Positions 47,011 through 53,966 of a stretch of DNA of 64,000 nt are shown piece after piece (position 1 is the stretch's first letter; each line of letters begins with the position of its first letter). Below the pieces are notes generated by a model, which was given only the letters and a program-made list of their open reading frames with translations, ran no database searches and was not told the DNA's origin. The stretch comes from Escherichia coli (GTDB lineage Bacteria; Pseudomonadota; Gammaproteobacteria; Enterobacterales; Enterobacteriaceae): NCBI RefSeq assembly GCF_017348835.2, contig NZ_CP071375.1; one strand, written 5' to 3'. Made by a program: the position numbers and the translations under genes.

Positions 47011-47087
47011 GCGCCCTTAGCTCAGTTGGATAGAGCAACGACCTTCTAAGTCGTGGGCCGCAGGTTCGAATCCTGCAGGGCGCGCCA
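47011..47087 (+). tRNA. argU: tRNA-Arg (anticodon UCU)
   Basis: 77 nt gcgcccttagctcagttggatagagcaacgaccttctaagtcgtgggccgcaggttcgaatcctgcagggcgcgcca; cloverleaf with anticodon loop cuUCUaa. Confidence 0.95.
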
Positions 47088-51066: not shown

Positions 51067-51536
51067 TTTGCTGCTCCTCATCATATCGACCCTGCAAGGC
51101 CGATTAGTTTCTCCACAAAACAGAGAAGAACACCTGTGGTGGCCGCCGCCCGGATGGATTGGGTTATGAGCCCGTCGTCCGGTGATGCTCTTCTCTGTTT
51201 TGTAAAAAGGACGGTACCAGCCGGAAGCAAGGGTACAAGCTGGTACCGCCAGGACTACACACAGCATAAAGTTGTGGTGCCGGGTGCCCTCCCGGTGCCT
51301 GGCGAAGGTTGCACACCAGGCGGGTGGGTATCCACAGAAGGTCGACTGTCAGCCTCAACCTTAACCCGCGTGCGCTGAGCCGCATTCACCACAACGCTAA
51401 GGATTCTCTCTGGTTGAAAATACTTAGCTGTTATGTGCCTGCTTTTAGCCACATCAGGCGAGGTGGACCTGGTTATTCCCCAACAACAAGGATTCGGTTA
51501 ATCTGGATATCCCCAACAACAATAAGAGTATTCAAT

Positions 51537-52052
51537 GTGATCGCTGAATTAACGGCAGCAATGACGGCTATTCGTGAAACAGCCCAGATTGCAAAACTAA
51601 TGAACGAGGCAAAAACTCAAGCTGAAGTAAATGCGGCTATTGGTGAGCTGAACTCAAAGCTTGCGTCTATTCAGCGCGAATGCGTGTCTCTCGTTGAACT
51701 GGTGGGCTCTTATCAAGAAATAAATGCTTCTCTCAAAGCTAAAATTGCAGAATTCGAAAACTTTGAGGCTCAGACGGAAGGCTATATCCTTAACCAACTT
51801 GAGTCGGGTACTTTTGTATACTCGAAGGAGGTAATCGTGAACGGTGGCAGCATAACCATGCATCTTTGCCCAAAATGTTTTGGACAAAAGATAGTATCGA
51901 TACTTCAACCATTCCCGGTTAGCGAAGATGAGCTTTTTCATAAAAGCAGGTGCCTCCACTGTGAAAATAAGTTTCTGATGAATAAAAATCCGGATTACGT
52001 ATCGCCTCCATCCATTGAGGAGTTGTCCAGAAAACTTAACGGCAATCTGTAG
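51537..52052 (+). CDS. orphan protein: N-terminal heptad-rich helix plus C-terminal CxxC...CxxC zinc ribbon; convergent with pL
   Basis: ~171 aa from GTG 51537 (or 163 aa from ATG 51561); protein-like composition; own terminator at 52092-52115. Confidence 0.55.
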   Translation: MIAELTAAMTAIRETAQIAKLMNEAKTQAEVNAAIGELNSKLASIQRECVSLVELVGSYQEINASLKAKIAEFENFEAQTEGYILNQLESGTFVYSKEVIVNGGSITMHLCPKCFGQKIVSILQPFPVSEDELFHKSRCLHCENKFLMNKNPDYVSPPSIEELSRKLNGNL

Positions 52053-52091
52053 ATTACTACTGTTGTGGATATCCAGATTGTTAAAGAGCTA

Positions 52092-52115
52092 AGCGTCCTG
52101 TAGGGCGCTTTTTTG
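52092..52115 (+). terminator. intrinsic terminator of the orphan plus-strand gene
   Basis: agcgtcc tgta gggcgct followed by TTTTTT. Confidence 0.6.
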
Positions 52116-52280
52116 TTGCTAACGAATCATCCTGGACTTCATATGCCCCAGGCGGCTACTTCGTGGGCGTCCTGCCTGTTCGTTTTTGACATTTACTGAC
52201 TGCTTACGACACATGCACCGTGTTGCAACCAGATTTTGTTGTAATCCTGTAGTTGGTCTGGAACAAAAGATAAAATTAAA

Positions 52281-52317
52281 TTGCGAGATATGCAAGCGAT
52301 ATTTGCGAGGTATGCAA
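52281..52317. promoter_or_regulatory. OL-type operator pair with likely leftward promoter pL
   Basis: Two 15-bp sites ttgcgagatatgcaa and ttgcgaggtatgcaa, 22 bp apart, just past the 3' end of cI; same motif as sites between cI and cro. Confidence 0.55.
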
Positions 52318-52371
52318 ATTTATAGGTAGTAAAAAGCCACCTTTCGGTGGCCGATGGATGGGATATTGAGG

Positions 52372-53064
52372 TTAATTATGTCTCTTAAGGGTTTGCGACT
52401 GACTGATTAAGACCTTTCCAAAGACCATGAATCGGTGTTCGTTTTCGCTAGTAATTCCCCATTCACGGTAAATCTGGTTATCAGAAATCACCAGCAGTTT
52501 GTCAGGAATCATTTGAAGTCTTTTAACGTATATTTTGTCATCAAAACCAAAGACATATATACCATCACCATCAAACTGATTGATGCTGACATCAACGAAG
52601 ATGAGATCTCCTGGCTCAATGGTTGGACACATACTGTCCCCACGAACGTTGATAACTTTGATGTGATTGGCTGGTCGTCCGCCGAACATTGATACAGCAT
52701 TATCAGTTCTGTATTCGATGGCATGAATCACATCAATGACATCACCGCCCTGGATAAGGCCATTTCCCGCACTGGCACTGATATCCAGCATTTCAATACG
52801 GAACACATCCTTCACCTGCGCAACATCCTCATTATTACTGTTTTTATATACAGTATTACTTTTGTGGGCAGAGGTAAAGAGATCAGCAATATCAACACCT
52901 AAGCTCTTGGCAATATTACTCAGTGTTTGTTCGGTAAATTGTTTTTGCTTACCCGTTTCTAAGCGCGAGATGTTCGCCGCATCTACTCCTATTGCTTCAG
53001 CGAGATCGGCGATTTTCATGTTCTTCGCTTGGCGAAGTTGTCTGACTCGGTTTCCTATGTTCAT
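52372..53064 (-). CDS. cI: CI-type prophage repressor (XRE HTH plus S24 LexA-like peptidase domain)
   Basis: 230 aa; N-terminal HTH (MKIADLAEAIGVDAANISRLETGK); C-terminal GDSM ... K peptidase motif. Confidence 0.85.
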   Translation of the reverse strand: MNIGNRVRQLRQAKNMKIADLAEAIGVDAANISRLETGKQKQFTEQTLSNIAKSLGVDIADLFTSAHKSNTVYKNSNNEDVAQVKDVFRIEMLDISASAGNGLIQGGDVIDVIHAIEYRTDNAVSMFGGRPANHIKVINVRGDSMCPTIEPGDLIFVDVSINQFDGDGIYVFGFDDKIYVKRLQMIPDKLLVISDNQIYREWGITSENEHRFMVFGKVLISQSQTLKRHN

Positions 53065-53084
53065 GCGTTTATTACATTTCTTTA

Positions 53085-53147
53085 TTGCGTGATAAGCAAA
53101 TCAACTTGCGCAAAATAATTGCGTGAAATAACATGCATAACGCGCAA
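53085..53147. promoter_or_regulatory. OR operator region with divergent pRM/pR
   Basis: ttgcgtgataagcaa (53085-53099), ttgcgcaa core, atgcataacgcgcaa (53133-53147) between divergent cI and cro. Confidence 0.55.
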
Positions 53148-53161
53148 TATTTGGAGGGCAT

Positions 53162-53422
53162 ATGCAATCACCATTACGAAATGTGCGTAAGGCGCATGGT
53201 TTCACTTTGCAGCATGTTGCTGCGGGTGTTCAAGTCAATCCAGCGACGTTGAGTCGTATTGAGAGGCTGGAGCAGATTCCATCTATCGAGCTTGCAGAAC
53301 GTTTAGCCAATTTTTTTAAGGGTGAAGTCAGCGAAATGCAGATTCTTTATCCGGCACGTTTTCAATCTAGCCAAAACCAGAATGGGTTTAAACCACAGGA
53401 ACAGGAGGTGAACCGTGGGTAA
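53162..53422 (+). CDS. cro: Cro-like HTH regulator
   Basis: 86 aa; HTH (GFTLQHVAAGVQVNPATLSRIE); GGAGGG upstream; divergent from cI. Confidence 0.75.
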   Translation: MQSPLRNVRKAHGFTLQHVAAGVQVNPATLSRIERLEQIPSIELAERLANFFKGEVSEMQILYPARFQSSQNQNGFKPQEQEVNRG

Positions 53423-53966
53423 GCATCACTGGAAAGTAGAAAAACAGCCTGAGTGTTACGTGAAAGCTGTCAGAAAAACTATCGCAGCGTTGCCGGGGGG
53501 GTACGCTGAAGCTGCTGACTGGCTGGATGTAACAGAGAACGCATTATTTAACCGCCTTCGTGCCGATGGCGATCAGATTTTCCCGCTGGGATGGGCAATG
53601 ATTTTGCAACGTGCTGGTGGAACTCACTTCATTGCTGACGCTGTGGCGCAGTCTGCAAATGGCGTCTTTGTGTCTCTTCCTGATGTCGAGGATGTGGACA
53701 ACGCCGATATCAACCAACGCCTGCTGGAAGTCATTGAACAGATCGGCAGTTATTCAAAACAGATTCGTTCAGCAATTGAAGACGGTGTAGTGGAACCGCA
53801 TGAGAAGACAGCAATTAACGATGAGCTGTACCTCTCAATTTCGAAGCTGCAGGAGCATGCAGCACTGGTCTACAAAATCTTTTGCGTTTCAGAAAGTAGT
53901 GACGCCCGCGAGTGTGCAGCTCCGGGCGCCGTGGCGTGTCGTGACTGTGGAGAAACTAACGCATGA
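53415..53966 (+). CDS. CII-like / YdaT-like regulatory protein
   Basis: 183 aa; position after cro; overlaps cro end. Confidence 0.55.

Follow-up and report, generated by a model that had tools for sequence, protein, structure and literature searches.

Putative CI/Cro operators flanking the repressor gene of an SfII-like prophage in Escherichia coli

The immunity region and its 15-bp sites

The DNA considered here is a stretch of 64,000 nucleotides from Escherichia coli (contig NZ_CP071375.1 of assembly GCF_017348835.2; hereafter the window, with positions counted from its first letter). In its right-hand part lie two divergently transcribed genes for helix-turn-helix (HTH) proteins and, both in the gap between them and past the 3' end of the leftward one, a set of imperfect 15-bp palindromes that very probably are the CI and Cro operators of a lambda-type immunity switch carried by an SfII-like prophage. 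An original prediction, made from the letters of the window and a list of its open reading frames (ORFs), had named the two genes cI and cro. Their domain content bears this out: the first codes for an HTH_3 domain joined to a Peptidase_S24 domain, the second for an HTH_3 protein, and a gene of the CII/YmfL family comes next (Table 1), which gives the lambda-like order cI, cro, cII with cI and cro diverging.

The region shares 98.8% DNA identity with that of Shigella phage SfII (KC736978), whose record annotates the genes as cI, cro and cII, and the CI proteins of the two are 100% identical. Identity is about 90% at the DNA level to phages mEp460, Stx2a_1447/WGPS2 and 1720a-02, the CI of mEp460 being 96% identical to the one in the window. 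Judged from this similarity the locus is the immunity region of a lambdoid E. coli prophage of the SfII kind; of 5426 complete E. coli genomes, 1039 contain it, and the window as such matches E. coli chromosomes at 100%. A sequence search of the Protein Data Bank (PDB) returned structural neighbours of CI at the family level only, namely ClgR, the 434 repressor (1per, E = 0.008), SinR and UmuD. The S24 domain of CI is of the self-cleaving LexA/UmuD type, and the residues that would form its cleavage site (Ala99-Gly100), together with the catalytic pair Ser144 and Lys181, are unchanged across an alignment of five homologues. In the records of SfII, mEp460 and Stx2a_1447 the annotation consists of cI, cro, cII and a terminator; operators are unannotated.

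The original prediction had listed four 15-mers built on a shared motif, and all four are present in the sequence. Two of them, here called the left operator (OL) sites OL1 and OL2, had been said to lie 22 bp apart downstream of the cI 3' end: their starts are indeed 22 bp apart, with a gap of 7 bp, and they are situated 55 to 91 bp past the cI stop at 52372 and also past the cI terminator. The other two, OR3 and OR1 of the right operator (OR), fall between the start codons of cI (ATG at 53064) and cro (ATG at 53162), as predicted. The consensus offered with them, TTGCG-N5-YGCAA, suits both OL sites and not the OR sites, one of which has AGCAA while the other ends in GCAT; a better description is TTGC(G/A)-N5-(C/T)GCA(A/T), in which the central base is A or T. 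Likewise, the statement that these sites define OL and OR holds for the four, yet it overlooks a third, weak OR site at 53106-53120. This middle site is, from its position, our candidate for OR2; we take it to be intrinsically weak and probably in need of a neighbour to be occupied. At OL there are two sites, not three, in the window and in all relatives examined.

Three other placements of OR2 were considered and rejected. A site at 53119-53133 (TTGCGTGAAATAACA, repeat D2) has one good arm that is unconserved outside the E. coli/Citrobacter group; a site at 53109-53123 (CGCAA-N5-TTGCG) contains the same unconserved arm and has its arms facing outward, in the wrong orientation; and a site at 53099-53113 (AATCAACTTGCGCAA) would abut OR3 and has an outer arm that is never near the consensus. 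The 15-mers are also no match to the LexA (SOS) box, CTGT-N8-ACAG, as they read TTGC-N7-GCAA.

Table 1. Features of the immunity region and its surroundings, with positions in the window. PL and PR, putative early leftward and rightward promoters; PRM, putative promoter for cI maintenance.
Feature	Position	Strand	Description
OL1, promoter-proximal left operator (putative)	52281-52295		TTGCGAGATATGCAA; matrix rank 1; centre at about -28 of PL
OL2, distal left operator (putative)	52303-52317		TTGCGAGGTATGCAA; matrix rank 4; centre at about -50 of PL
OR3 equivalent (putative)	53085-53099		TTGCGTGATAAGCAA; matrix rank 3; over PRM -35 and spacer
OR2 equivalent, weak (putative)	53106-53120		TTGCGCAAAATAATT; placed by position; a single consensus arm
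OR1 equivalent (putative)	53133-53147		ATGCATAACGCGCAA, equal to TTGCGCGTTATGCAT on the other strand; matrix rank 2; over PR -10 and start
Possible fourth operator-like site	53183-53197		GTGCGTAAGGCGCAT; cro codons 8-12; degenerate in the window; matrix rank 13
PL (putative)	52267-52295	minus	-35 TTGCAT 52295..52290 (OL1 arm); 17 bp; -10 TATCTT 52272..52267; start near 52260
PR (putative)	53106-53134	plus	-35 TTGCGC 53106-53111 (OR2 arm); 17 bp; -10 TAACAT 53129-53134; start near 53141
PRM (putative)	53071-53099	minus	-35 TTGCTT 53099..53094 (OR3 arm); 17 bp; -10 TGTAAT 53076..53071; start 53064
cI	52372-53064	minus	230 aa; N-terminal HTH_3 (1.2e-11), C-terminal Peptidase_S24 (6e-19)
cro	53162-53422	plus	86 aa; HTH_3 (5e-10)
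cII	53415-53966		CP76/YmfL family; directly after cro
Intrinsic cI terminator	52335-52352	minus	between cI stop and OL2; terminator scan and SfII annotation
Conserved 62-nt RNA	52122-52183	minus	PL leader; just upstream of bidirectional terminator 52091-52110

Frequency of the motif in the window

The strict form TTGCR-N5-YGCAA occurs twice in the 64 kb, both times at OL, against 0.86 expected, and at least two matches were present in 14 of 100 shuffles; the loose pattern with one mismatch occurs 43 times in the whole window against 33 expected and is not enriched. A weight matrix made from the window's own four sites would be circular, and was replaced by an independent one, for which the training set was 46 distinct orthologous sites, all of them from other genera. 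The symmetrised consensus of these is TTGCGTAATACGCAA, and position 8 is invariably A or T. With this matrix the four sites take ranks 1 to 4 among all positions of the 64 kb (scores 19.1, 17.2, 16.7 and 11.5), the next match scoring 10.5, while the best score in shuffled windows was 13.4 on average and 18.6 at most. That the four top-ranked matches lie in two short patches flanking cI is not a matter of chance. In the homologous loci described below, the motif is 21.7 times as dense in the two flanks of cI as elsewhere in these loci.

Conservation of arms, spacings and layout

The broad comparison covers 23 homologous loci with CI 40-100% identical to that of the window. It includes phages of Salmonella, Klebsiella and E. 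coli (CI 67-83% identical) and 18 usable loci from bacterial assemblies taken at one genome per species (CI 40-92% identical), which come from Citrobacter, Kluyvera, Klebsiella, Trabulsiella, Pantoea, Mixta, Rosenbergiella, Cedecea, Providencia, Serratia and Phaseolibacter. Throughout the 23 loci the arms TTGC...GCA(A/T) are fixed, and variation is seen in the spacers and in the 5 bp at the centre of the sites. All distant relatives retain the recognition-helix region of CI, [ILV]SR[LV]ETGKQK, together with the arms of the sites and their layout. Read from cro towards cI, this layout is as follows: TTGCG-N5-YGCAT; 12 bp; a 15-mer ending in the palindrome TTGCGCAA; 6 bp; TTGC-N7-GCAA; 17 bp; a TGTAAT-like hexamer; about 6 nt; and the cI ATG.

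The distances are kept as well. Centre to centre, OR1 and OR2 are 27 bp apart and OR2 and OR3 21 bp apart in 19 of the 21 loci that could be parsed, and OL2 and OL1 are 22-24 bp apart in the relatives, where both again lie downstream of the cI terminator. Both arms of OL1 are retained in 22 of the 23 loci and OR3 in 20 of 21, and OR1 ends in GCAT in all 19 loci with the 27-bp spacing because this arm overlaps the PR -10. At the OR2 position a site with one arm mismatch is present in Klebsiella, Eeyore, Citrobacter amalonaticus, Mixta/Pantoea septica, Rosenbergiella and Cedecea, and the 8-bp palindrome TTGCGCAA (within 53100-53113), which doubles as the PR -35 and as an OR2 arm, is found in 21 of the 23 loci. 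The 6-bp gap beside this palindrome (ATCAAC, or GTTGAT on the cI strand) is near-invariant too. At OL, shifts of the spacing by 1-2 bp occur in other relatives.

A close comparison used 80 loci from IMG/VR with CI 99-100% identical, 77 of which were aligned (MAFFT, fast settings). Across these 77, hardly any change is seen in cI, cro, the PL leader and the entire OR region, and the operator arms TTGCG and TGCAA are essentially fixed; the variation is concentrated in the centres of OL1 and especially OL2, the 7-bp spacer between them, the 13 bp that separate OL2 from the terminator, and the triplet between the Shine-Dalgarno sequence (SD) and the ATG of cro. In the mEp460 group (mEp460, Stx2a_1447 and 1720a-02) the differences from the window within OR fall almost entirely on the central bases of 53085-53099 and 53133-53147, and OL keeps its arms but differs in its centres and in the length of its spacer (7-9 bp). 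One IMG/VR locus (L056) has an exact deletion of 22 bp, equivalent to 52289-52310 of the window, which merges the directly repeated OL1 and OL2 into one site.

Promoters and a model of the switch

The three promoters of Table 1 are inferred, since they were placed by eye and by conservation. In each of them an operator arm, TTGCNN, is at the same time the -35 hexamer; a bound dimer would therefore exclude RNA polymerase. In the relatives a TAnnnT hexamer, the presumed PL -10, lies 8 nt past OL1 at the same offset in 19 of 22 loci; the PR -10 reads TAACAT, TAATAT or TATTAT at the same place; and a TGTAAT-like hexamer followed after about 6 nt by the ATG marks PRM in most cases. The PRM transcript would be leaderless, since its start coincides with the A of the cI ATG and an SD before this ATG is absent. 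Relative to this start, OR3 is centred at about -28 and OR2 at about -49. Fixed arms that do not covary, variable centres and spacers, and constant offsets to the promoters, seen from E. coli to Providencia and Serratia, argue for the reading of the original prediction, that the 15-mers are operators for CI and Cro.

On this basis the following scheme is put forward. A dimer of CI would bind the 15-bp pseudo-palindromes TTGC(G/A)-N5-(C/T)GCA(A/T). Bound to OL1 and OL2, which at 22 bp are two helical turns apart, it would block leftward transcription from PL; bound to OR1 it would cover the -10 and the start of PR, and at the weak OR2 the PR -35. Occupation of OR3, over the -35 of the leaderless PRM, would result in negative autoregulation of cI. 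Cro has a similar recognition helix (by eye, VNPATLSRIERLEQ in Cro and VDAANISRLETGKQ in CI are alike) and presumably uses the same sites, closing PRM and later lowering the activity of PR and PL. Induction would follow when RecA-stimulated cleavage at Ala99-Gly100 removes CI during the SOS response; self-cleavage is the expected route because CI has Ala99-Gly100, Ser144 and Lys181.

The geometry of OR bears on how the sites might cooperate. The 27-bp spacing between OR1 and OR2 is out of helical phase, and the 21 bp between OR2 and OR3 resemble the spacing of the OL pair; pairwise cooperativity, if there is any, would thus be favoured by this geometry between OR2 and OR3 rather than between OR1 and OR2. 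Autoregulation of cI may be mainly negative, because a near-consensus OR3 sits on the PRM -35 and no site is centred at the position from which lambda repressor activates (-42).

Alternative readings and points against the model

Some other phage regulator, either Cro alone or the CII/YmfL-family activator, might occupy the sites in place of CI. The TTGC tetramer is the repeat unit recognised by lambda CII (TTGC-N6-TTGC), a CII-family gene adjoins cro, and direct TTGCG repeats are present at 53106 and 53119. Against this, the 15-mers are inverted (TTGC-N7-GCAA) and not direct repeats; the sole direct pair has a period of 13 bp, and its 53119 copy is unconserved in relatives. Moreover, the CII of the window belongs to the CP76/YmfL family and not to that of lambda CII, and sites of the CII type would be expected at promoters directed at cI or int rather than at PR and PL. 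The motif arms and the recognition-helix region of CI are, besides, both kept across genera, and we regard binding by another regulator as very unlikely.

Alternatively, the conserved TTGC arms could be nothing but -35-like promoter elements, the palindromes having arisen by chance or mutational bias, so that the 15-mers would not be units of repressor binding at all. It is true that one arm is the -35 hexamer in all three inferred promoters, that TTGC agrees with the beginning of TTGACA, and that the loose motif is unenriched over the window. The promoter-distal arms, however, are as well conserved as the proximal ones; OL2 touches no -35 and yet keeps both arms in nearly all loci, and OR1, which overlaps a -10 rather than a -35, still keeps TTGCG-N5-YGCAT. 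The constant span of 15 bp, the A/T centre and the variable inner bases are typical of sites for dimeric HTH proteins. An explanation by promoter elements is hardly credible in view of this. Least plausible, to the point of being negligible, is that the palindromes act as RNA hairpins in the PL and PR transcripts (in attenuation or stability) and not as DNA operators: each 15-mer could form a stem of 4-5 bp, and transcripts would include OR1 and the cro-internal site, but such a stem with a loop of 5-7 nt is marginal, OL1, OL2, OR2 and OR3 are each upstream of the point at which transcription from their own promoter would begin, and the arms never covary, their fixed sequence indicating base-specific contacts with protein.

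Several observations nevertheless weigh against CI/Cro operators in the form proposed here. A single 15-mer as good as these may occur by chance in 64 kb, given that shuffled windows reach 18.6. OR2 at 53106-53120 has matrix rank 196 in the window, and its identity is a matter of positional homology alone. A sigma-70 scan of 51900-53500 called no promoters, PL, PR and PRM included; the -35 hexamers agree with TTGACA at just three of six positions, and the PRM -10 is without the A at its second position. The lambda scheme, in which cooperative binding to OR1 and OR2 activates PRM, fits poorly because of the 27-bp spacing and the position of OR3. BLASTP gave no alignment between the N-terminal domain of CI and Cro. 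Finally, a search of the literature by site sequences, mEp460 and SfII yielded no description of operators for the SfII/mEp460 immunity type, and a paper that compares SfIV with SfII and places the two together contains no operator sequences.

Comparison with known switches

With lambda the locus shares the divergent cI and cro; a CI made of an HTH domain and a self-cleaving S24 domain; cII after cro; imperfect palindromes of one consensus, in the gap between cI and cro and past the cI 3' end, that lie over PR, PRM and PL; and a leaderless cI mRNA from PRM, as deduced here. The differences are in the details. The sites are 15 bp long (TTGC-N7-GCAA), those of lambda 17 bp (of the TATCACCGCCAGTGGTA type), and OL has two sites in place of three, so that three sites per side are not found. 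The OR spacings of 27 and 21 bp are unlike those of lambda, which are 24 and 23 bp. OR3 is situated on the PRM -35 and not in the interval between -10 and -35, and no site occupies the activating position of lambda, OR2 being centred at about -49. Genes rexAB are absent between cI and OL, and the proteins have no close sequence similarity to those of lambda. Among the ORFs of the window no N-like one was recognised beside PL; no nut sites were recognised either, and 51900-53300 gave no Rfam match.

The 434 repressor and P22 c2 resemble the present CI in their XRE-type HTH and in operators with conserved outer arms around a variable, A/T-rich centre. The operators of these two repressors are 14-18 bp long with central bases that are not contacted, and in 434 the centre tunes affinity through the shape of the DNA. 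The similarity is at family level only, and the half-site TTGC differs from ACAA of 434 and from the P22 half-site.

A two-site OL is a known variant: phage 933W has three OR sites and lacks OL3 (PMC5977221). Its repressor and operator sequences are different ones, and its binding, affinities and non-cooperativity have been measured, whereas our description is drawn from sequence alone. Stx2a phages such as Stx2a_1447 and WGPS2 also carry relatives of the immunity type described here. SfII has the same immunity type as the window, and to the left of 52121 the module in the window differs from that of SfII.

The putative operators are a new instance of a well-known type of switch, with sequences that had been left unannotated. 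The immunity type (SfII, mEp460, Stx2a_1447/WGPS2) is present in about one-fifth of the complete E. coli genomes, in serotype-converting Shigella phages and in some Stx2a phages, and the map of the sites with the geometry of their promoters provides targets for footprinting, for the engineering of induction and for the prediction of homoimmunity between prophages. The departures from lambda, i.e. the two-site OL, the OR spacings of 27 and 21 bp, the -35 hexamers built from operator arms and the OR3 on the PRM -35, suggest a different logic of autoregulation that may be compared with that of 933W.

Hypervariable positions and a site within cro

Among the 77 closely related loci, nucleotide diversity at fourfold-degenerate sites is 0.007 in cI and 0.006 in cro. 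It amounts to 0.24 in the OL2 centre (19 alleles), 0.14 in the OL1-OL2 spacer and 0.11 in the stretch of 13 bp on the upstream side of OL2; for the triplet between the SD and ATG of cro (53158-53160) it is 0.44. Natural variants of the OL2 centre include AGA, AGG, AAA, TGA and GGA, and ten natural versions of the SD-ATG spacer of cro occur. The hot spots (52286-52330 and 53158-53160) exceed the fourfold-site diversity 10 to 60 times, with the arms remaining fixed, and the 77 sequences make up 51 haplotypes. An independent set of 79 loci of the mEp460 type has hot spots of like kind, including, at the corresponding place ahead of the cro ATG, a position with three alleles. Both in OL2 and in the cro start region the hypervariable triplet stands directly 5' of TATGCAA.

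Tentatively, this pattern might mean that the operators are also evolutionary tuning knobs, at which changes in repressor affinity, in cooperativity and in the translation of Cro have recurrently been selected; we consider it a possible and rather doubtful interpretation. Were it correct, such changes would reset the threshold between lysogeny and induction, or answer competition between homoimmune phages. Neutral drift is the alternative to tuning, and a local mutational bias is a further candidate.

The original prediction was concerned with the flanks of cI, and a possible fourth site is found inside cro itself (53183-53197, Table 1). In 14 of the 23 homologous loci the site departs from the motif by no more than one arm mismatch and reads TTG CGN AAR TCG CAA; in these its leucine codon is invariably TTG and its serine codon invariably TCG, while neighbouring codons vary. 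This codon usage suggests a fourth operator-like site, some 50 bp past the PR start.

A structured RNA in the PL leader

The early-left transcription unit that would be controlled by OL includes a conserved RNA of 62 nt (Table 1). It has an invariant core of 23 nt (AGGCAGGA.GCCCACGAAGUAGC) and a fold in which a closing helix surrounds two hairpins. Two helices covary: 99% of the cells are paired, against at most 42% in slid controls, with compensatory changes in 9 of 15 pairs. The same RNA is present, unannotated, in many temperate phages of other immunity types (among them SfV, SfIV, ST64B, SPN3UB, ZF40, YeP1-3, AH07 and mEp237), and it lies about 100-170 bp past the repressor gene in all four annotated records examined (ZF40, YeP1, AH07 and SPN3UB). 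No match to it was found in Rfam, and its covariance model found neither a match in the early (put) region of HK022 nor a second copy in the window.

A role in reading through the terminator is a reasonable guess, as no N-like gene is recognised beside PL and a terminator follows the RNA. In function the RNA may be similar to HK022 put. It does not match the put antiterminator RNA itself: put consists of two adjacent stem-loops of about 70 nt, with copies past both PL and PR, and the leader RNA has a different fold and no second copy in the window. HK022 putL has just the short string CAGGAUGA in common with it, in a different structural context.

Neighbouring features

The early-left region of the window carries an inserted module different from that of SfII, as the similarity to SfII stops at 52121. 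A plus-strand ORF in the region 51309-52112 (translation checked from 51579) ends at 52052 and has no Pfam match; it is convergent to PL and has its own terminator, 52091-52110. Further Rfam matches in the window (STnc480, naRNA4, AgrB and ES036) are all in its host part. About 5 kb to the left of the immunity region there is a tRNA gene (47011-47084, plus strand), which probably is the attachment site of the prophage.

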